13,459 nt of DNA from a virus, in UHGV virus genome UHGV-0077154; one strand, written 5' to 3'. The stretch's first letter is position 1. Each line of letters opens with the position of its first letter. Below are positions 1 through 13,459 of this stretch, in pieces. The notes below the pieces were generated by a model. The model saw only the letters and a list, made by a program, of their open reading frames with translations. It was not told where the DNA came from and searched no databases. Both the position numbers and the translations under genes were made by a program.

Positions 1-54
1 GAACGAGAGCTTCCCAAGCTCTATACGAGGGTTCGATTCCCTTCGCCCGCTCCA
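1..54 (+). tRNA. glyU: 3' 54 nt of tRNA-Gly (anticodon CCC); the 5' ~20 nt lie outside the window
   Basis: Sequence gaacgagagcttCCCaagctctatacgagggttcgattcccttcgcccgctcca matches from memory the 3' part of enterobacterial tRNA-Gly1: anticodon stem-loop AGAGC/TTCCCAA/GCTCT, T-arm GAGGG/TTCGATT/CCCTT, acceptor 3' strand CGCCCGC, discriminator T, CCA at 52-54. One extra matching base (g at position 1) compared with the right-hand copy suggests this is the genuine gene. Confidence 0.8.
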
Positions 55-85
55 GTCTCCTGATAAATCAACAAGTTATGATTTA
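2..85. repeat. attL: direct repeat, 60 bp perfect (2-61) plus 24 bp imperfect extension (62-85)
   Basis: 2-61 is identical to 13376-13435. The following 24 bp (62-85 vs 13436-13459) differ at only 3 positions, so 55-85 matches 13429-13459 at 28/31. Confidence 0.8.
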
Positions 86-621: not shown

Positions 622-1257
622 ATGGCTGAGTATCATCCTGCGGTATTTAATGCTGAGGCTTTTAACTGTCCTTACTGCGGTGTATATGCCCGTCAGTTCT
701 GGCGCAATTTGTTTGGTAGCGGAAATGCGTTGGCAACTGTTGCGACTGCGTTCCGTATGTCAACATGTTCTCATTGTGATGAAGATTCTTATTGGTATGA
801 GGGCAATATGATGGTCCCTGCTGCTGGAAATGTGGAACTACCTAGTCCTGACATGCCTGAAGACTGCAAGTTCGACTATATGGAAGCAAGAAGCATCGTT
901 AATCTGTCCCCTAAAGGTGCTGCTGCACTCCTTCGCCTGAGTCTGCAAAAACTGATGGTCCACCTTGGCGAACCGGGTAAACATATTGACACGGACATAA
1001 AATCTCTCGTGGCTAAAGGCTTGTCTCCGTTGGTCCAAAGAGCCGCAGATATTTGTCGCATTGTCGGTAATCAGGCTGTTCACCCCGGAGAAATTAATCT
1101 TGATGATGACCCGCAATTAGCACATGGCCTCTTCAAATTACTGAATATTATTGTCACGGAACAAATTACCAGACCCAAAGAGGTTGAAAAGATGTTCAAT
1201 AGTATGCCTGAAAGGGCGTTGAAGGGTATTGAAAACAGAGATAAACCTAAAACTTAA
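622..1257 (+). CDS. Zn-ribbon plus DUF4145-like domain protein (211 aa), possible defence/abortive-infection cargo
   Basis: ORF with two CxxC pairs at the N-terminus (CPYC, CSHC). The C-terminal half has the pattern [13 protein letters not shown]...[33 protein letters not shown], which I recall as the DUF4145 signature (R-x-GN-x-a-H). Weak SD (AAGG about 12 nt upstream). Followed by a hairpin at 1263-1276. Confidence 0.6.
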
Positions 1258-5072: not shown

Positions 5073-5264
5073 ATGATTGTGAAACTGTCACTAGACGATG
5101 AAACATATGCAATTTTACGCGAAGAATCTGACCGTTTGGGGATGCCAGTTCCGAGGATGATCCGGAACATGTGCCAGAACCTGGCGAAACACATTCAGAA
5201 ACGCAATGAACAACCACTGACGAACCCACAGGGAGAACAACATGACAGAGACAGTAGAAGCTAA
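5073..5264 (+). CDS. Ribbon-helix-helix-like small DNA-binding protein (~61-63 aa)
   Basis: IVKLSLDDETYAILREESDRLGMPVPRMIRNM fits the beta-strand plus two-helix pattern of CopG/Arc/MetJ-type RHH proteins. GGAG lies 8 nt upstream of GTG at 5079, which may be the true start rather than ATG at 5073. Confidence 0.55.
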   Translation: MIVKLSLDDETYAILREESDRLGMPVPRMIRNMCQNLAKHIQKRNEQPLTNPQGEQHDRDSRS

Positions 5265-5886
5265 TCTGCCAGACGAACAGGACGGCACTTTTGATCGCAA
5301 TTATACCGAGATTAAGCGCTTGAAAGTGTTGGTTGCCGACGATGGAACTAAAATTCCGTTCAGCGCGAACATGAAAGTAGTCTACGCCTACCTCTACACC
5401 TTCCAGACAAATAAAGAGCGGCGGAACTACCCTGAGCCAATTTATCCTAATATGGAAATAATCGCGTGGGAAAATGGCATTACTAAACCCACGGCGCAAA
5501 AGGCTGTGGATGATTTGATGCGGGCGGGGGTGTTGATTAAGGACCAAATTCAGGTTGGGAGCGGGTTTAAGTCCAACAATTACGTTGTGTTGAAACCCTC
5601 GAAAGTGGTGGCGCGTGGCGTCACTCCACCGCATCCAAATGCTTCTAAATATTCAACTGCCGAGGAGAGCGGTAAGAATGAACAAAAACGTGCTGTGGTG
5701 GAACCTGCCGCGCCTGTTGCTGGAAAACCAGACGGCATACCTGTTGTGGATATTCCTGTCGATGCTGATGTACCTGCCGATGATGATGCGGTGATCGGAG
5801 ACTTTAGTGATCCTTACCTTGATGCTGAAGTAAAAGAATGGCAGAAACAAAAACATAGTGGAGGATTGAATTGTGTGAACACGTAA
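5242..5886 (+). CDS. Putative winged-helix-like DNA-binding protein with acidic C-terminal tail (214 aa); candidate iteron-binding initiator or regulator
   Basis: SD GGGAGAA 4-5 nt before ATG; overlaps the upstream gene by 23 nt. Segment MEIIAWENGITKPTAQKAVDDLMRAGVLIK resembles a wHTH; C-terminus is D/E/P-rich (DIPVDADVPADDDAVIGDF). Function is inferred only. Confidence 0.6.
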   Translation: MTETVEANLPDEQDGTFDRNYTEIKRLKVLVADDGTKIPFSANMKVVYAYLYTFQTNKERRNYPEPIYPNMEIIAWENGITKPTAQKAVDDLMRAGVLIKDQIQVGSGFKSNNYVVLKPSKVVARGVTPPHPNASKYSTAEESGKNEQKRAVVEPAAPVAGKPDGIPVVDIPVDADVPADDDAVIGDFSDPYLDAEVKEWQKQKHSGGLNCVNT

Positions 5887-6347
5887 GCGTTGAACTGACC
5901 GCAGATGAAGAACAAAAGCTATCTCGCCTTTTCTCCGTCCTGGAGAAACCGACATATAAATCCCGATCCAAACCTTCCGATCCGGAAACACAACGCAAAG
6001 CCCGTTTATTGCTTAATCGTGGATTTTCACCGCATATTGTCGCTAATACCCTAGATCTGCCGTTCGCTGAAGTCTGGCGGCTCGCACGTCAAAAACAAGC
6101 GGTGACCTGGGCGATGATGACACCGACAGCCCGGACAGAATTTGTCCGTGAAATGTGGTCACATCGGATGCACCCGGAACAGATCCGCAAGCGTTGCGAT
6201 GGTCTGTCATACGTCAGTCTGAGATATTACCTGCATAACGCCGGGATCACTGACGCTGAAATGTTGGGTTACTACCCAGACGTGTTCGTGAATATCTGCA
6301 AGCTGCCGACAGTGAAGAAGAAGCGCACTAAGTGTAAGGCCCGTTAG
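5871..6347 (+). CDS. Hypothetical basic protein with HTH-like segment (158 aa)
   Basis: TTG start 6 nt after GGAGG (5860-5864), overlapping the upstream gene end (coupled translation). KARLLLNRGFSPHIVANTLDLPFAEVWRLARQ is HTH-like; lysine-rich C-terminus. Could be a regulator or a small-terminase-like DNA-recognition protein; not resolved. Confidence 0.55.
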   Translation: MCEHVSVELTADEEQKLSRLFSVLEKPTYKSRSKPSDPETQRKARLLLNRGFSPHIVANTLDLPFAEVWRLARQKQAVTWAMMTPTARTEFVREMWSHRMHPEQIRKRCDGLSYVSLRYYLHNAGITDAEMLGYYPDVFVNICKLPTVKKKRTKCKAR

Positions 6348-6349
6348 GG

Positions 6350-6365
6350 TGAACGTTAACGTTCA
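6350..6365. promoter_or_regulatory. 16-bp perfect palindrome TGAACGTTAACGTTCA
   Basis: Exact self-complementary 16-mer immediately after the stop codon at 6347; shares the TGAAC/GTTCA half-site with the palindrome at 3986-4001. Confidence 0.4.
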
Positions 6366-6511
6366 TCACTTTGTGACCGGATCGCCAATCCAAATAATCC
6401 CACATCGGGAGCCAATGAACTTTGAAGCAATCCTTTCTTACCTGCCCGTTGTCTGGCTGGCGTATCGCTGCGTCCGTGATGGGCTGATCCTACTTTGGAG
6501 ACACCATAAAA

Positions 6512-6892
6512 ATGACATTGAACAGCATTAAAAATGCTCTGTTTGCCGCTATGCACGGCATGACACCGGAGGAATACGAACTCCAAAAGGCGCGGGACAA
6601 TCTCAAGAGCGTCACCGATAACTTTCTGGATCAACATCCGGAGTTGCTCAAATCAGCCTCGTCTGACACCCCCACGGATAAACGGGGCGAAGCCCTCTCG
6701 CCAATGCGAGACACCTTTGGTGCTGAACAACGGATTAAAAAATCTTTGGGCGCTGATAGCCGTCCGGCGGTAAGTCATACCGCTGATCACATCGATCCTG
6801 AAATGCTGGCGAAAGCTAAAGCAGCGGCTGCTGCTCTCGCAAAATCTGACCCTGATCGTTACGGCAATATCATCAAGCAGCAGGGGGTGTGA
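6512..6892 (+). CDS. Hypothetical protein (126 aa)
   Basis: ORF with GGAG about 11 nt upstream; its stop overlaps the start of the next gene (GTGATGA), suggesting translational coupling. Ala/Lys-rich C-terminus. Confidence 0.55.
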   Translation: MTLNSIKNALFAAMHGMTPEEYELQKARDNLKSVTDNFLDQHPELLKSASSDTPTDKRGEALSPMRDTFGAEQRIKKSLGADSRPAVSHTADHIDPEMLAKAKAAAAALAKSDPDRYGNIIKQQGV

Positions 6893-9036
6893 TGGCGAAT
6901 GGCAATATCATAGTGACTGAAACCGTAAACGAGGTGACATGGTCTGTCGATCGGACAGCCTTCGGTCGCGCCCTGAAAGCTGTTAAATCCATCAAGGCTG
7001 CTCATGAGAAACCAGCTAAGGCGCTTGAGAAGGCCCAGAAGCGGACCGTCCAGAGTGAAGGCAAAGCCGCACTAGCAGCAGCGAAAGCCCAGACAGCGAA
7101 GCTACGCCAGGCTGAACAATTGTCTAAACAGCAACAGAAACAAGCTCAGATACAAGCCAAAATGGAGCGGGACGCAGTAGCCCACGCCAATAAAATGACC
7201 TCATTACAGGCGCGTCAGTTATCCCAACAGGAACAGGCAGCACGTCAGAATGCCCGTTTAGCAGCAATATCTGAAAAGGTGAGACAGGCGAGTCGCTCCC
7301 GCGCGATGACCTACACCCCAAACATGGGCGGTCAACATTACGATCCTGGTCTTGTTTCCCGTCAGACTGACGCAATGAACCGTGGTCACGGCGCTGTTGC
7401 TGCCGACATCGCAGCCACCAAAAAGGCGATGGCCCTGGAGGAGAAGCGCCAGCGTGAGAAAGAGGCAGGACTTAAGCGTGAGGTGACTTATTACAACAGT
7501 TTGCGCCGTAGCGCTTTGACTCTGGCAAACGTGAACGGCGCTGACGTTGCAACCCGTTATAAAGCGATCAGTGCAGCAAAAGAGGCACTCAAAGCCCAGA
7601 AAGAAGAGCGTTATACGGTCGAAGAGACCCGTTTCGAAATGGCCCGTATCACTACAGAATTACGCAAGCAGGCTCGTCTGCAACAACGTATTACCCGTGA
7701 GCAGAAAGCCGCAGGTGTTCGTGCTGGTCGTGTACGCACAGAAAGCCGTGGTGGAAGTGTAGGTCTGGCTGCCGCTGGTGTTGTTGGTGGTGCGGCGTTA
7801 GTAGGTAGTATGGGCGTTTCTCGTGTTGGTCAGACCCTTCAGGGAAGCCTTGAGCGTTCTCGCGATGTGAAAAAACTCCAGCAGTATGGGATCAGCAACC
7901 TTGAGTTCGCAGCACTTCAGGATCTATCAATGAGCCGTGTTGGTTACTCACTGAGTGCTGACAAGCTGGCTGACCTCAACAAGGACACAACCGAAAAGGC
8001 CGGGGAATTGCTGAATACTGGCTCTTTCAAACGTAACAAGAAAACTGGACAGGTGAATTTCAGCGGCGGTGGTGAGTTTGCAGATATCATCAATAACGTA
8101 CTGACCTCCACCAACGGCAACCAGAAGGTAGCCCAAAAGGTGATCGGGGAACTGCAAAAACTGGATTTTCCAACATTTATCACTTATCTAAAGCAATTAC
8201 AGAAAACTTTCGGCTGGACTGATCGACAGGTGCGACACCTGGCCGAGGCTGTGAATGATGGTTCGGTCTTCCTCGAAGTGTTCAATGATGAGGGGCAGGG
8301 ACTTATCCAGCGTATGAATCAACTCGCTTCTGAAGGATGGACCCTATCTGATGCACAGCAGGCCAACCTTGATAAGCTGGCAGCTTTGGGTGCTGAGTAC
8401 AGTCGCGTGCAGATGTCGCTTGCTGACCACTTCAGCGCCAGCTTCGTGCAGGGTCTGGGAGAATATGCAGCTAATACTGACACTCTACGTCAGAAGATGA
8501 CTGGACTGATCCCAATTTCCGATGCTCTCGGCGTTGCCCTTGGTGAGCTAACCACCAACATTCTCTCCTTCGCTGGTCGAGTCGGTGAAGAACTCAAGAA
8601 AGGCGCGACACTGCCGGATGCAGTCTACAACACCGTAGTGGATGACTCTGCAAATAGCACCGCCGATTGGATTAAGGAAAAGACCGGATTTGATCCACGC
8701 AGCATCGGTCAGACGCTCAAACAGATTTACCCGTGGCTGGATAGTTTCGCTCCGAGCAATATCGGCTCAGGCACGGCGTATAACGATCCAGCGCTAGCGT
8801 TGAATGTTCCTGGTTTCAACTCAATACAACCCCAGCAACCAACGTTTACGATTCCGACAATTGACAGCATGACGCAGCGACAGCCGATTCCTGTTGCGGT
8901 CACTGGCGAAGCTGAGATTAAACTCTCACCGCTTGATATTAACGTGAATGACGGCGCTATTAACGGTTTGATTGATACAAAACTGAGGAGCTATGAGCAG
9001 GCACAGAACAACATGATCCTTGGTATTGCTCAATGA
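6889..9036 (+). CDS. Large coiled-coil protein with central Gly/Ala-rich hydrophobic segment (715 aa); tape-measure-like or scaffold-like structural protein
   Basis: N-terminal ~270 aa are A/K/Q/R-rich heptad-like repeats (KAQTAKLRQAEQLSKQQQKQAQIQAKMERD). Central segment GGSVGLAAAGVVGGAALVGSMGV is TM-like. Sits immediately upstream of the D/E-like capsid genes. ATG at 6892 is the more likely start (GGGGG 4 nt upstream). Assignment is by architecture only. Confidence 0.55.
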   Translation: MMANGNIIVTETVNEVTWSVDRTAFGRALKAVKSIKAAHEKPAKALEKAQKRTVQSEGKAALAAAKAQTAKLRQAEQLSKQQQKQAQIQAKMERDAVAHANKMTSLQARQLSQQEQAARQNARLAAISEKVRQASRSRAMTYTPNMGGQHYDPGLVSRQTDAMNRGHGAVAADIAATKKAMALEEKRQREKEAGLKREVTYYNSLRRSALTLANVNGADVATRYKAISAAKEALKAQKEERYTVEETRFEMARITTELRKQARLQQRITREQKAAGVRAGRVRTESRGGSVGLAAAGVVGGAALVGSMGVSRVGQTLQGSLERSRDVKKLQQYGISNLEFAALQDLSMSRVGYSLSADKLADLNKDTTEKAGELLNTGSFKRNKKTGQVNFSGGGEFADIINNVLTSTNGNQKVAQKVIGELQKLDFPTFITYLKQLQKTFGWTDRQVRHLAEAVNDGSVFLEVFNDEGQGLIQRMNQLASEGWTLSDAQQANLDKLAALGAEYSRVQMSLADHFSASFVQGLGEYAANTDTLRQKMTGLIPISDALGVALGELTTNILSFAGRVGEELKKGATLPDAVYNTVVDDSANSTADWIKEKTGFDPRSIGQTLKQIYPWLDSFAPSNIGSGTAYNDPALALNVPGFNSIQPQQPTFTIPTIDSMTQRQPIPVAVTGEAEIKLSPLDINVNDGAINGLIDTKLRSYEQAQNNMILGIAQ

Positions 9037-9132
9037 TGAAACAGAGGGTGGCGAATTCGTCGCCCCTATCTCAACACCACAATGCGTATGTATCAAATTT
9101 AGCGACAAATCAAATACTTTTCGTGAAATTTG

Positions 9133-9161
9133 TTGTAAATGATAATCATTCGTGTTAAAAT
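9133..9161 (+). promoter_or_regulatory. Sigma70-like promoter (TTGTAA-17-TAAAAT) overlapped by a Fur-box-like element
   Basis: AATGATAATCATT at 9138-9150 matches the central 13 of the 19-bp Fur consensus GATAATGATAATCATTATC (14/19 overall); -35 at 9133-9138, -10 at 9156-9161. Confidence 0.4.
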
Positions 9162-9167
9162 AATATA

Positions 9168-9542
9168 CAAGGTGAATTACAACAGCCAAATGTTTTTCCC
9201 TTCTCCTTAGGAATCAAAGTGCGCTTTTCCCAGAGCGCCTTTTCTCATACAGCCAATATCCGCACCCTCTCACGGTAAGGTTAGGCCATTGCCGCTGGCT
9301 GTATCAGAAAAGCATCGCAGAGCGATTAGCCAGCAGGCTAACCCGTTCTCGTGTGTAGAAAATTTCCACCTAAGGTGGATTTGCCAAAAGTCCTGTCCTC
9401 CTCGGCGGGCTGTCAGCCGGACACTAACGGCATCAGGTGGCAACGTTTTTGGGTCTCCTTACCCATTCTTTGGAGCGTTGCCGCCTCCTCATTCCTACCA
9501 GTGAAATTCACACCGGACGACTCTCCGTCCGGTCACTTTTTT
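9168..9542 (+). ncRNA. Candidate non-coding transcript/leader between the Fur-box promoter and a strong terminator; possibly a short ~80-nt form ending at a weak hairpin (9221-9246)
   Basis: No credible ORF here (the track ORFs are R/P-rich with no SD). Several hairpins: TTAGCC-AGCA-GGCTAA, TCCACC-TAA-GGTGGA, GCGCT-N8-AGCGC followed by CTTTTCTC. Ends at the intrinsic terminator 9513-9542. Confidence 0.3.
9513..9542 (+). terminator. Rho-independent terminator
   Basis: Stem CCGGACG (9513-9519), loop ACTCTC, stem CGTCCGG (9526-9532), then TCACTTTTTT. Confidence 0.7.
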
Positions 9543-9610
9543 CATCGGAACAATTCTAAAGGCTGGCCCTGTCGCCGTTTACGGCTCAAGCAGGCGCTGG
9601 CCTTTTGTTT

Positions 9611-9622
9611 ACATAGCTATGT
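9611..9622. promoter_or_regulatory. 12-bp perfect palindrome ACATAGCTATGT about 22 bp upstream of the D-like gene SD
   Basis: Exact self-complementary 12-mer; candidate operator/activator site for the capsid operon. Confidence 0.35.
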
Positions 9623-9645
9623 GAAATTTAACGGGAGTTAATTAT

Positions 9646-9987
9646 ATGAAAATGGGAAGCCTTGAGCGCTCTTACAATGACGTGATCGCGTATGCAGCCG
9701 ATCCGAATTTTGACCGCAAGACTATTACTGTCGATCTAGCTGTAGAAGTCCAGCCGGGTAGTTGCATTACCAGCACTGGAGCTGCTTATGTCTCTGGTGA
9801 TGACTGCCTGCTGGTCCTGAGCCACCACAGGGCCGAAGATGCTGCTCATATCATCGTTGCTGATCGCGGGATTTACATCAAACAAGACACCATCACCGCT
9901 GTTATGGGCGCTACCGCTGGCGCTAATGCTATTGCCGCACTCACCAAAACGGGCGCAATCCGTACTAGCGCACCGGACGCAGAATAA
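9646..9987 (+). CDS. Lambda gpD-like head decoration protein (113 aa), tentative
   Basis: Size (113 aa vs 110 for lambda D), position directly upstream of the E-like gene, and a Gly/Ala/Thr-rich beta-type composition (TITVDLAVEVQPGSCITSTGAAYVSGDD...TAGANAIAALTKTGAIRTS). SD GGGAG 8 nt before ATG. Confidence 0.45.
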   Translation: MKMGSLERSYNDVIAYAADPNFDRKTITVDLAVEVQPGSCITSTGAAYVSGDDCLLVLSHHRAEDAAHIIVADRGIYIKQDTITAVMGATAGANAIAALTKTGAIRTSAPDAE

Positions 9988-11509: not shown

Positions 11510-11719
11510 ATGAACTTTGATATGCGTACAAACCAAAATTGTGCATCTTTTTTTAACCCAGCAACCAAGGCGTTTGTCGTCGTCGATTCGTTTGACAACT
11601 ACGAGTTCGATGTTCGTGCTGGTACTTTATCACGCACTGAATTTGTAGGCACAATCACAGCTTCGAACGATGAAGAGTTGAACAAGAAATTAGCTGAGAT
11701 CACGGCTGCTCATATATGA
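11510..11719 (+). CDS. Hypothetical small protein (69 aa), cargo cassette gene 1
   Basis: Excellent SD AGGAGG with a 5-nt spacer; AT-rich codon usage; stop overlaps the next start (ATGA). Confidence 0.65.
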   Translation: MNFDMRTNQNCASFFNPATKAFVVVDSFDNYEFDVRAGTLSRTEFVGTITASNDEELNKKLAEITAAHI

Positions 11720-12090
11720 TAACTCAACAGCAAATTGATGATTTAGTTGCAGATATTAACGATATCTTAGAAGAAGATAGAGCTAGACTGAAGATGTCAT
11801 TTCATTTTGCTGTTGATAGACTCAATGATCAGCGTAACAAACCTCCAATCACGCTAGATGAATTGAGAGTGATTTTTACAAATTTCATTGAACAACACTT
11901 GCAGACCATTTTAGGCAAAGATGAGGGGTTCTCCTTCACTATTAAGTGCCAGAAATCAGGTATTGCTATACCTTGCGCCATAGAGCATGAACTTGAGATT
12001 GGTGCAACGTGGGTAGTACAGCAAGTGATCACCATCATGCGGAATCCGAACTTTAACCCATACCATGGTGATGTCATCTTCGAAATCTAA
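11716..12090 (+). CDS. Hypothetical protein (124 aa), cargo cassette gene 2
   Basis: Translationally coupled to the upstream ORF; AT-rich; followed immediately by a strong intrinsic terminator. Confidence 0.65.
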   Translation: MITQQQIDDLVADINDILEEDRARLKMSFHFAVDRLNDQRNKPPITLDELRVIFTNFIEQHLQTILGKDEGFSFTIKCQKSGIAIPCAIEHELEIGATWVVQQVITIMRNPNFNPYHGDVIFEI

Positions 12091-12092
12091 GT

Positions 12093-12118
12093 AAAAAGGC
12101 GCAATAGCGCCTTTTTTT
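12093..12118. terminator. Bidirectional rho-independent terminator (AAAAAGGCGC-AATA-GCGCCTTTTTTT)
   Basis: Perfect GGCGC/GCGCC stem with a 4-nt loop, flanked by an A-run and a T-run; sits between the convergent cassette gene 2 and integrase 3' ends. Confidence 0.8.
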
Positions 12119-13313
12119 ACAAATCCGGATAACACGCCAACTCGACATACTCCGATAGTTCCTTCATCCCTGGCCCTTTGCTGTAGGTTCTGAATGCTTC
12201 GGTTTTCGCTTTTTGTTCGGTATGTCCAGTGATGGCTCCGATCCGTTGTTCTGGCACCCCTGCACGGTCTAAGCAGGTGATGAACATTCCCCGTAAGCTG
12301 TGAAAACATTGCCGATCTGTAGCGGTTGGCAATGTGCTGTCACGTAGCCGGGTAAACTTTTGGCTGTACCACGGACCCCGCTTACCATCCTTCCGAATGA
12401 TGTTATTAGACTGAGCCAGAAGATATTCACCGCTGTTATTTGCCAGATGCTTATCAACAATCCCCATCAGCAGCGAGTGGATCGGAACATACCGCACCCC
12501 GGCTACAGTCTTGGACTTGCTGACAAAGAAACATCTGACACCCTCCAACATTACAATTTCATCCCGCTTGATGCTGGCGATCTCATCAAGTCGCATTCCT
12601 GAATACAGCCCAATCAGTATGACATCGCGTAGAACGTCATCCGCTTCTCTGACAAGTGTTTGCAATTGTTCAGGTTCAAACGGCTGATAACTTTCTATCG
12701 TGCGACGTGCTTCGAGGTTATGACCGTGAAACGGGTTACTGTCGGGGATTGCGTCATATCGACGTTTGGCGAACTCGTACAGACTCCCTAAAGAGGTTAG
12801 CCAGTTTTGCACGGTCTGCGGTGCTGCCTTTTTCTGTTGGCCTTCAATGAAGTCTGTAACCGTTCTGCGTCCTATCTTGTTCAGACTAATATCAACTTTA
12901 CCGATACTCTGGAGAAATACTTCCACCGCTCGCGCGGATTTGCTGAGTGTGGAAAATGCCCGACGTTCACTATAAACCGTCATGTATTCATCACGGATGA
13001 CTGCCAACGTTGGGATAGGGGAGACTGCTACAGGCGTACTCTTGGCCTGTTTGATTGTGGTGTGGAGTGTGGTGATCGCATTCTGGATGCGAATGTCTTC
13101 CCGATCAGGATTCAACAGGGCTTTCAGATTGTTGAACTCAATCAACATGTGATTTCTGAAGTGACGAGCCTTAAGGATGTCTTTTGTCCCGGTGGATTTT
13201 CGCCAGGCTCGTTTGTTGTCAAACAGGTGACGCATGTACGCAGGTACAAAGACCTGAAAGATCCATACGCCCGAATGACTTTGAAAAAGATACTGATTGT
13301 TCTTGATAGACAT
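12117..13313 (-). CDS. int: Tyrosine recombinase / phage-type integrase (398 aa)
   Basis: C-terminal catalytic motifs: GMRLDEI (Arg box I), HSLRGMFITCLDRAGVPEQRIGAITGH (H-x-x-R box II), FRTYSKG (catalytic Tyr). SD AGAGGA about 8 nt upstream of ATG; gene lies next to attR. Confidence 0.9.
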   Translation of the reverse strand: MSIKNNQYLFQSHSGVWIFQVFVPAYMRHLFDNKRAWRKSTGTKDILKARHFRNHMLIEFNNLKALLNPDREDIRIQNAITTLHTTIKQAKSTPVAVSPIPTLAVIRDEYMTVYSERRAFSTLSKSARAVEVFLQSIGKVDISLNKIGRRTVTDFIEGQQKKAAPQTVQNWLTSLGSLYEFAKRRYDAIPDSNPFHGHNLEARRTIESYQPFEPEQLQTLVREADDVLRDVILIGLYSGMRLDEIASIKRDEIVMLEGVRCFFVSKSKTVAGVRYVPIHSLLMGIVDKHLANNSGEYLLAQSNNIIRKDGKRGPWYSQKFTRLRDSTLPTATDRQCFHSLRGMFITCLDRAGVPEQRIGAITGHTEQKAKTEAFRTYSKGPGMKELSEYVELACYPDL

Positions 13314-13375: not shown

Positions 13376-13459
13376 AACGAGAGCTTCCCAAGCTCTATAC
13401 GAGGGTTCGATTCCCTTCGCCCGCTCCAGTCTCCTCATAAATTAACAAGTTATAATTTA
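13376..13459. repeat. attR: partial tRNA-Gly 3' copy (60 bp perfect to 13435) plus imperfect extension to the window end
   Basis: Identical to 2-61; the sequence upstream (caatgtcgggatggagt) does not match the tRNA 5' half, so this is the truncated copy. Confidence 0.8.

Follow-up and report, generated by a model that had tools for sequence, protein, structure and literature searches.

A putative tape-measure protein gene in a predicted integrative phage satellite of Enterobacterales

PLEs, which are phage satellites of Vibrio cholerae, encode a tape-measure protein (TMP) and a chaperone, and some of them also encode a hub protein (PMC12987554). The PLE TMP is present in PLE particles, from which the helper TMP is excluded, and PLE tails are ~11 nm shorter, fitting TMP lengths of 582 versus 677 residues; deletion of the PLE tmp gene lowers transduction by 96–99.9% (PMC12987554). 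Predicted tmp genes were noted in some cf-PICIs (PMC12987554, Extended Data Fig. 10), and in Mycolicibacterium the satellites known as EPIPs carry genes for a major capsid protein (MCP) and a TMP (PMC12822802). The present analysis concerns UHGV virus genome UHGV-0077154, a stretch of 13,459 nt referred to here as the window, which contains a small island with direct repeats near its ends, and in particular a 714-aa protein encoded by the island. To our knowledge, manipulation of tail assembly by a satellite has been shown only in 2025–2026 and for a single family (PLE/ICP1), and the literature searched contained no paper linking satellites to Vequintavirinae helpers.

The best explanation of the 714-aa protein, with a probability of about 60%, is that it is a functional satellite TMP that would build chimeric tails from the parts of an rV5-like helper phage. 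The principle of a satellite-encoded TMP with chimeric tails has been published for the PLEs, and it is a TMP-only version in Enterobacterales that would be new. Like the PLEs (PLE1, PLE4 and PLE11, with the helper ICP1), the island is a small integrative element with a tmp gene, and its helper would be a virulent myovirus, which is presumed here and was shown for the PLEs. The TMP is in both cases ~90 residues below that of the helper lineage (582 versus 677 residues in the PLE system and 714 versus 778–811 for the island, where the helper is presumed), and in both the TMP alleles fall into divergent groups. However, PLEs have chaperone and hub genes and use the helper coat remodelled by TcaP, whereas neither gene was detected in the island, which has its own MCP gene. 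The helper lineage and the host family also differ, and the likeness of the two TMPs is one of setting, length and allele groups. Particle incorporation and a transfer phenotype were shown for the PLEs and are only predicted for the island.

The cf-PICIs and EPIPs resemble the island in being satellites with an MCP gene and a predicted TMP gene. They differ from it in having genes for packaging and head completion, TerS and head-tail adaptors among them. A portal and a protease are further encoded by cf-PICIs, and a scaffold by EPIPs; no such gene was detected in the island. Of the full head and packaging set of the cf-PICIs (MCP, protease, portal, connectors and TerS), the island shows only the MCP, together with a decoration-like open reading frame (ORF). 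The helper of EPIPs is moreover a temperate phage, HerbertWM, and their tails are longer (PMC12822802). Family searches detected no P4-like or PLE-type hijacking families in the island.

The 714-aa protein and its phage relatives

An ORF without interruption runs on the plus strand from position 6889 to 9036 of the window and had been taken in the first-pass annotation to encode 715 aa. The first possible start codon is GTG at 6889, which gives that length, and the alternative is ATG at 6892, which gives 714 aa. The ATG shares one base with the TGA stop codon of the preceding ORF and follows a G-rich stretch that resembles a ribosome-binding site (GCAGGGGGTG), and every homologue starts at a Met residue matching ATG 6892 (MANGN... 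or MSGN...). Thus, the true product is most likely of 714 aa, with the coding part at 6892–9033 and the stop codon at 9034–9036, so that the frame first described is real and its start is shifted by one codon. A total of 870 database proteins match the ORF at E≤1e-3, and pairwise dN/dS values against six alleles are 0.12–0.26 overall and <0.36 in each computable segment. Hence, the ORF did not arise by chance; it is a real gene under purifying selection. The family is narrow: among 1.84 billion representative proteins, 62 clusters match at E≤1e-3, with ~30 full-length relatives of 578–732 aa.

Comparison with phage proteins revealed homology to TMPs along the whole protein. Four tape-measure families of PHROGs were matched, the best E-values being 2.8e-17 and 5.2e-11 at the N-terminus and 8.6e-06 at aa 533–612. 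A tblastn search of 50,697 phage records gave matches to three parts of the protein. Residues 4–49 share 63–69% identity with the N-termini of annotated TMPs of 140–150 kb Klebsiella and Proteus myoviruses and a Salmonella phage among the records listed, and aa 311–568 share 31% identity (8e-30) with a protein of Klebsiella phages KP13-16 and FBKp34. Residues 533–703 match the TMP of Jedunavirus SBP, to which the C-terminal region is 30% identical across 89% of its length. Within this part, a motif at aa 575–611 shows 54–77% identity to short stretches of TMPs or related proteins from many phages of 36–49 kb, some of which are annotated as transglycosylase-domain proteins. BLASTP aligned aa 5–192 with residues 3–220 of the BIS47 TMP (33% identity, 4.6e-18) and aa 307–568 with residues 271–529 of FBKp34 gp168 (32% identity, 4e-37).

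The genomic setting of the matched phage genes is that of TMP genes, as all of them have sheath, tube and chaperone genes to one side and baseplate hub genes to the other. In BIS47 (Vequintavirinae, Mydovirus), gp35, of 802 aa, is encoded downstream of the sheath, tube and chaperone and upstream of the hub and spike, and FBKp34 gp168, of 647 aa and annotated as 'TolA', has the same position in its tail module. The matched genes in SBP and in the rV5-like phage naswa are annotated TMPs. The proteins also end alike, with NMILGIAQ in the island, NLILGVPD in BIS47 and QSILGE in FBKp34. On these alignments, the 714-aa protein is a TMP homologue from end to end. The first-pass annotation had called its architecture typical of TMPs, and this assessment now has the support of homology as well (PHROGs, BIS47 and FBKp34).

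Architecture agrees with the class. Residues 51–285 are rich in A, R, Q, E and K (19% Ala, 30% charged), aa 286–312 (GGSVGLAAAGVVGGAALVGSMGV) form the only hydrophobic maximum of the protein (30% Gly, 22% Val, 19% Ala), and the remainder after aa 312 is of mixed composition. An AlphaFold2 model of the full-length protein (pLDDT 40, pTM 0.20), cited for secondary structure only, is nearly all helix, with helices at aa 21–137, 153–214 and 219–278, further helices within 310–617 and a terminal helix at 688–713. No meaningful tandem repeats were found within the gene. Composition, hydropathy and the modelled helices thereby bear out the long A/K/Q-rich coiled coil, the Gly-rich hydrophobic segment and the C-terminal part described from the sequence at first. 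A long helical protein with a Gly-rich hydrophobic segment is a feature of the TMP class, and the island protein has it.

In the structure of phage phiTE, the head-proximal connector region holds the N-terminal part of the TMP, and the baseplate hub encloses a C-terminal fragment, the tip of which is inserted between subunits of the hub and the spike (PMC11972413). Given these positions, the parts of the island protein that are most phage-like appear to be the two ends that dock in the tail machine. By analogy, the N-terminal module would sit at the head-proximal end of the tail, and the C-terminal region is presumed to be the hub-docking end. Residues 1–50 of the window protein are 64% identical to BIS47, 22% to naswa, 36% to phiTE and 13% to FBKp34. 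In the island alleles as a group, the N-terminal ~45 aa share 53–64% identity with BIS47 (40% in one allele), 22–39% with naswa, 35–41% with phiTE and 13–24% with FBKp34. The N-terminus of BIS47 itself is only 33–44% identical to those of the other two Vequintavirinae genera (naswa and phiTE). By sequence identity, the island N-terminus thus stands closer to Mydovirus than Mydovirus stands to the other genera of Vequintavirinae.

A single-sequence search of the PDB matched the phiTE TMP (9cuy_W, 811 aa) at the N-terminus with E=0.011. A profile of the island TMPs gave no gain over the single sequence (E=0.86 for 9cuy_W), the match being probably suppressed by composition-bias correction. Nor was any known phage found to be nearer to the centre of either of two island alleles, as both match there only FBKp34 and KP13-16, at ~32%.

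The island protein thus resembles two types of TMP in different parts. With the Vequintavirinae TMPs (BIS47 gp35, 802 aa, and phiTE, 811 aa) it has ~190 alignable residues, the terminal N-x-ILG and an almost wholly helical structure in common. It differs from them in being 64–97 aa shorter than the three examined (778–811 aa) and in the type of its central domain, and its gene is located in a chromosomal island without sheath, tube, chaperone or hub genes nearby. With FBKp34 gp168 and the KP13-16 TMP (FBKp34 belongs to Stephanstirmvirinae) it shares the central ~260 aa (32% identity), the position of the hydrophobic segment and the terminal ILG, but the N-terminus is only 13–24% identical to that of FBKp34 gp168, than which the island TMP is 67 aa longer.

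Most NCBI and UniRef records of the homologues carry the name 'chemotaxis protein', and RefSeq PGAP calls some of them 'coiled-coil domain-containing protein'. Searches of Pfam and NCBIfam with the 714-aa protein gave zero hits of any kind, including chemotaxis, HAMP and signalling domains. The 'chemotaxis protein' label is probably an artefact of coiled-coil composition, and neither name reflects the homology to TMPs. If the prevailing NCBI name were taken at face value, the gene would be a host gene, and with the disrupted copy in one island, where the 5' half is inverted, it could also be regarded as an inert remnant of a defective prophage. Such an origin is the least probable of the explanations considered: a chemotaxis domain is lacking in Pfam and NCBIfam searches, the dN/dS values are low, the ORF is intact in nearly all islands examined, and the gene always occurs within the same small integrative element, which is of ~13.4 kb across genera.

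Variation of the gene among islands and its independence from the capsid gene

When compared segment by segment with the window protein, the island TMPs show identities that jump between 42 and 100%, in combinations that differ among islands, and synonymous divergence between segments of the same TMP pair ranges from ~0.1 to >1.5. Although alleles fall to 42–48% identity in some segments, the total length is held at 709–720 aa. The central domain is among the most mosaic parts, with segment identities of 47–100% between island alleles. Hence the mosaic interior may be viewed as probably an arms-race or host-compatibility interface; as a speculation, the diversifying pressure could come from TMP-targeting defences or from envelope factors. 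The part that is most like phage TMPs, aa 1–50, is the least conserved among the closest alleles (62–72% identity, dS ~1) and occurs in at least four types. A proposed correspondence between N-terminal alleles and the host's own Vequintavirinae genus was not borne out, since the E. coli allele is 28% identical to naswa versus 53% to BIS47.

Variation of the TMP gene does not follow that of the capsid gene. In the island of E. coli HB42, the MCP and a 113-aa ORF that precedes it are 97% and 95% identical to those of the window, and the TMP just 67%. In a metagenomic island (L015), the TMP is 94% identical and the MCP just 33%, and the integrase gene is at the opposite end. The island of Winslowiella (L009) has an MCP of 77% identity and keeps the gene order, promoter and leader, but the TMP is absent, the small ORF that elsewhere precedes it being followed by the leader. 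Thus, the TMP reassorts independently of the capsid gene. The island of Citrobacter amalonaticus P55 (L005; 6550–9047) is otherwise nearly identical, with an MCP of 98% identity, but its TMP gene is disrupted by an inversion of the 5' half together with the 3' part of the ORF upstream.

More distant relatives of the TMP (~30% identity) are present in other islands with an integrase, where the neighbouring genes vary. A locus in a 5.97-Mb chromosome (L025; 8567–12584) encodes a 650-aa TMP, which has 31% identity to that of the window and is colinear throughout with FBKp34 gp168. Its gene is located downstream of the MCP gene and precedes a Dit-like gene, whose homologues in FBKp34 (2e-24) and BIS47 (9e-12) likewise come directly after the TMP gene. 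Another locus (L028; 8192–11294) has a Dit-like gene product 51% identical to BIS47 gp34 (1.5e-62) beside a 732-aa TMP, with integrase-like genes nearby. In a third (L023; 1370–6520), a 695-aa TMP gene is accompanied by an HNH gene and an integrase gene whose product is 94% identical to that of the window, and the interval has no capsid gene. Because the arrangements in HB42, L015, L009, L025, L028 and L023 all differ, the TMP gene is best described as a recurrent tail-related module that moves among small integrative elements and is not tied to a capsid gene. The similarities at these loci suggest that satellites carrying tail genes form a wider superfamily.

These arrangements bear on the suggestion, made in the first-pass annotation, that the protein is a capsid scaffold or size determinant, which would act in or outside the procapsid in the manner of Sid, CpmB, TcaP or Nu3/gpO. 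The gene is indeed upstream of the decoration-like and capsid genes of an island in which no scaffold or protease was recognised, and the protein is long, helical and charged. However, the homology to TMPs is full-length and no match to scaffold or protease families was found in Pfam, PHROGs or NCBIfam. The Winslowiella island, which keeps the decoration-like ORF, the capsid gene and the leader in the absence of a TMP, argues against such a role, as do the independent reassortment of TMP and MCP, the location of the L025 TMP downstream of the MCP and beside a Dit-like gene, and the presence of a TMP without MCP before the integrase in L023. The TMP gene is also probably in another transcription unit than the head genes (see below). 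A scaffold function is therefore disfavoured and is considered highly improbable.

The island and the genes adjoining the tape-measure gene

The features of the window are listed in Table 1. By its gene content, the 13.4-kb element is predicted to be an integrative phage satellite and not a phage, because it has att repeats, an integrase, a replication-like gene and defence cargo, and its structural genes are only those for the MCP, the decoration-like ORF and the TMP. Searches of Pfam, PHROGs and NCBIfam detected no portal, protease, terminase, connector, sheath, tube, chaperone, hub or lysis gene in the window, and none of the remaining window ORFs is long or similar enough for a portal or terminase. 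BLAST revealed no Dit/hub homologue among the window ORFs, and an Rfam scan of the window returned the tRNA fragment only. The initial remark that there are no tail genes is correct in so far as no other tail gene was detected, and incorrect in that the 714-aa gene is itself a tail gene.

Table 1. Location of the genes, protein regions and sequence elements in the 13,459-nt window.
Feature	Position	Strand	Evidence
attL, 3' part of tRNA-Gly	2..61	+	exact 60-bp direct repeat; Rfam tRNA at 1-51; tRNA-Gly hit
PD-T7-4 anti-phage defence gene, cargo	622..1257	+	PADLOC PDLC04109 4e-98, full length; Pfam DUF4145
Replication-initiator-like protein, same operon as TMP	5242..5886	+	PHROG 270 'replication initiation protein' 8.4e-6
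Small upstream ORF, 126 aa, translationally coupled to TMP gene	6512..6892	+	stop codon overlaps TMP start
Putative satellite tape-measure protein gene, 714 aa	6892..9036	+	ORF, start context, PHROGs, BLASTP/tblastn, dN/dS
N-terminal module, aa 1-50, Vequintavirinae/Mydovirus-like	6892..7041	+	identity to myovirus TMP N-termini
Helical A/R/Q/E/K-rich 'ruler' region, aa 51-285	7042..7746	+	composition, AlphaFold2, alignment to BIS47 TMP
Gly/Val/Ala hydrophobic segment, aa 286-312	7747..7827	+	hydropathy maximum
Central domain, aa 313-575, FBKp34/KP13-16 TMP type	7828..8616	+	BLASTP, tblastn
C-terminal region, aa 576-714; TMP motif aa 575-611, end helix with N-x-ILG	8617..9033	+	
Sigma-70-like promoter TTGTAA-17-TAAAAT, TG extension	9133..9161	+	conserved, also in L009 and L015
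Structured leader, ~450 nt, before head genes	9165..9610	+	terminator-like hairpins at 9221-9247, 9512-9542 and ~9556-9610
113-aa ORF at decoration-protein position, conserved MCP partner	9646..9987	+	
Major capsid protein, lambda-E family, 344 aa	10006..11040	+	Pfam Phage_cap_E 4.6e-14; phrog_29 3.4e-14
Tyrosine integrase, adjoins right repeat	12117..13313	-	Pfam Phage_integrase 3.9e-9; phrog_1 1.2e-35
attR copy of 60-bp repeat	13376..13435	+	

The same element of ~13.4 kb, with the same gene order, was found at a tRNA-Thr site in E. coli, and it also occurs in Citrobacter, Enterobacter and Pseudenterobacter; homologues of the TMP are recorded from Klebsiella and Cronobacter. Copies of the TMP from Klebsiella, Enterobacter and E. 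coli are 100% identical (rounded). A related gene is present in 38 of 5426 complete E. coli genomes, always as a single chromosomal copy. Island-sized contigs (13.2–13.9 kb) were considered as evidence of excision or packaging and rejected, as assembly breakage at the 60-bp repeat can explain their size. Two such contigs were checked, one of which (L013) is an att-bounded copy of the island and the other (L015) a linear variant without terminal repeats. Matches in IMG/VR were likewise rejected as evidence of packaging, since they are inside contigs of 28–62 kb.

The genes from ~5073 to 9036 abut or overlap one another and form an operon, in which the TMP gene comes last. The counterpart of the replication-initiator-like protein in the E. 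coli island is annotated as DUF6945. Several small ORFs are present elsewhere in the island, and a few more follow the capsid gene. The PD-T7-4 gene is in a low-GC part of the island (36–38%) near attL, beside an unannotated 272-aa ORF at 1283–2101 on the minus strand, and this region looks like a typical defence-cargo hotspot of satellites. Two small ORFs at 11510–12090, in the interval between the capsid gene and the integrase gene, very strongly match uncharacterised PHROG families (phrog_14630, 3.6e-39, and phrog_14518, 1.4e-63). In the phage collection, the only matches of the second are one Klebsiella phage of 41 kb and one Escherichia phage record of 19 kb without annotation, and the pair therefore provided no clue to the helper.

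The small ORF upstream of the TMP gene is of two types with little in common: their N-termini are weakly similar, and in some islands they have the same last residues (...QGV). Type A is present in E. coli HB42 (L001; 10353–10685), where RefSeq calls it 'phiTE-211 family', and in the Winslowiella island (L009; 8504–8956). It contains the stretch KTIKEKGIALCHxxQGYSANLRPVSLxMK, and 33–37 aa are 76–88% identical to residues ~8–41 of a scaffold-like protein of Vequintavirinae, the gene for which is located between an XkdF-type protease gene and the decoration and capsid genes. Thus, on sequence similarity, the type A ORF may be a mimic of the helper scaffold, and this stretch points to Vequintavirinae as the helper lineage, the same as does the TMP N-terminus. 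The ORF in the window is of type B and gave no tblastn match in phages; it has 87 homologues, all of which are small proteins from Enterobacterales genomes or metagenome assemblies. An AlphaFold2 model showed a helical hairpin, a disordered linker and a helix. A function of the upstream ORF as tail-assembly chaperone was considered and is unsupported, as it had no phage match, hhalign found it unrelated to the chaperone and scaffold of BIS47, and Foldseek found no match for the model in the PDB (best E=4.2).

Between the TMP gene and the head genes is a non-coding stretch of 609 nt (9037–9645), which is conserved, including in L009 and L015. The spacer of its sigma-70-like promoter holds a perfect palindrome, AATGATAATCATT. 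RNAalifold predicted 112 pairs in the leader, 17 of them with compensatory changes, and the last of the terminator-like hairpins is invariant in five islands and lies ~40 nt before the 113-aa ORF. From these features the head operon looks like one under repressor and antitermination control. With a promoter-like site and terminator-like hairpins in the conserved stretch, the head genes are probably transcribed separately from the TMP gene. The first-pass annotation placed the TMP gene directly upstream of the capsid genes; it is upstream of them, but this stretch intervenes and a transcription boundary is probable. Its location where a scaffold or protease gene would be expected is coincidental: the gene closes the upstream operon, preceded by a small conserved ORF and followed by the head-gene promoter and leader.

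The 113-aa ORF occupies the position of the head decoration gene in BIS47, FBKp34 and naswa and is conserved (60% identity in L009 and 43% in L025), and it had no family match in Pfam or PHROGs. The island MCP is ~20% identical to the MCPs of BIS47 and FBKp34.

Proposed role in tail assembly and its significance

Of the three functions offered at first, the alteration of helper tails by a tape-measure-like protein has the most support, from the homology to TMPs and from the experimental precedent of the PLEs (PMC12987554). The third of them, an ejection or internal protein, is not a separate alternative. TMPs are ejected in their normal function, and in other TMPs the hydrophobic segment and the central domain act in DNA delivery.

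In the proposed process, a large virulent myovirus of the rV5/Vequintavirinae type would infect the cell, and the satellite TMP would replace the helper TMP in tail assembly. Judged from both ends of the TMP, the helper would most likely be Mydovirus-like. The C-terminal tip of the satellite TMP would dock in the helper baseplate hub, and helper tube and sheath subunits would then polymerise around the helical body. Growth would end at the helper-like N-terminal module, where helper terminator proteins would cap the tail. As no chaperone gene was detected in the island, the satellite TMP would have to use the chaperone of the helper. The length of such a chimeric tail and its ejected 'needle' protein would be set by the satellite, and the tail would be ~8–12% shorter than that of Vequintavirinae (714 versus 778–811 aa). 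At ~1.3–1.6 Å per residue, the difference from a helper with a TMP of 802 aa would be ~10–14 nm. The chimeric tails would join small capsids made of the satellite's own E-type capsid protein; roughly scaled from a T=13 capsid with 142 kb, 13.4 kb would correspond to T=3 or T=4. On infection of the next cell, the Gly-rich segment and the central domain would be expelled first and would aid the passage of satellite DNA across the envelope. In this scheme, particle incorporation, tail-length control, docking of both ends and the identity of the helper are all inferred.

Several observations weigh against this scheme. The TMP gene has no adjacent chaperone and hub/Dit genes, unlike the canonical setting of a TMP gene, and no chaperone or hub gene was found in the island, whereas all PLEs carry tac with tmp. 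At the C-terminus, the alignment of aa 639–712 with residues 745–800 of the BIS47 TMP is weak (E 2e-5 to 0.02 across alleles, in a very small database), and the AlphaFold2 model of the protein is of low confidence (pLDDT 40). The N-terminus of the E. coli allele is not rV5-like, contrary to prediction. Furthermore, the hydrophobic segment is at 0.40 of the length of the island protein, as compared with 0.38 in FBKp34, 0.38 in L025 and 0.76 in BIS47, and the interior is of the FBKp34 and not the Mydovirus type, so that compatibility with a Mydovirus tail is not assured. The direction of the change in tail length also depends on the helper: with one like FBKp34, whose TMP is of 647 aa, the tail would be longer.

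A TMP with helper-like ends could alternatively serve as an interference decoy that has no part in the satellite's own particles. Its ends would compete for the hub, chaperone or terminator of the helper, and helper tails would be poisoned or mis-sized and the helper yield lowered, so that the protein would act in defence or competition. This would agree with the combination of a helper-like N-terminal module (and, weakly, C-terminal tip) with a foreign interior, and with the presence of a defence gene in the island. Interference with the assembly of the helper is common among satellites, and defence systems are known to act on tail assembly (Rta, PMC12987554; Tai, PMC11364771). A decoy, however, needs the interacting ends only, yet purifying selection acts on every segment of the gene, including the hydrophobic segment, the central domain and the aa 575–611 motif. 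The length of 709–720 aa is maintained, distant relatives add a Dit-like structural gene, and the TMP of the PLE satellites is a structural component of the particle (PMC12987554). An action solely as a decoy is thus unlikely, though appreciably less so than a scaffold or a remnant; decoy and structural roles of a satellite TMP are not mutually exclusive.

If the protein is a functional TMP that builds chimeric tails, the strategy known from the PLEs would extend to clinically important Enterobacterales (Klebsiella, Enterobacter, E. coli, Citrobacter and Cronobacter) and to rV5-like phages. The latter are used in therapeutic cocktails. The system would also be a simpler one, with a TMP but without a chaperone or hub gene, in which the contrast of helper-like ends and mosaic interior would map the docking and the free parts of a TMP. 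The homology to TMPs also corrects the widespread database mis-annotation of these proteins as 'chemotaxis protein'. Small satellites that have their own capsid gene but lack the cf-PICI set are probably missed by marker-based satellite searches.

A broader interpretation, which is put forward tentatively and is held to be somewhat less probable than its opposite, is that the islands represent an undescribed superfamily of enterobacterial satellites on rV5-like myoviruses, the hallmark of which would be a TMP adaptor, with or without a Dit-like hub protein, that has helper-type ends and a recombining DNA-delivery interior. If so, the interior would diversify against TMP-targeting defences or envelope entry factors, and these satellites would control the entry of DNA into the next cell and not just its packaging.

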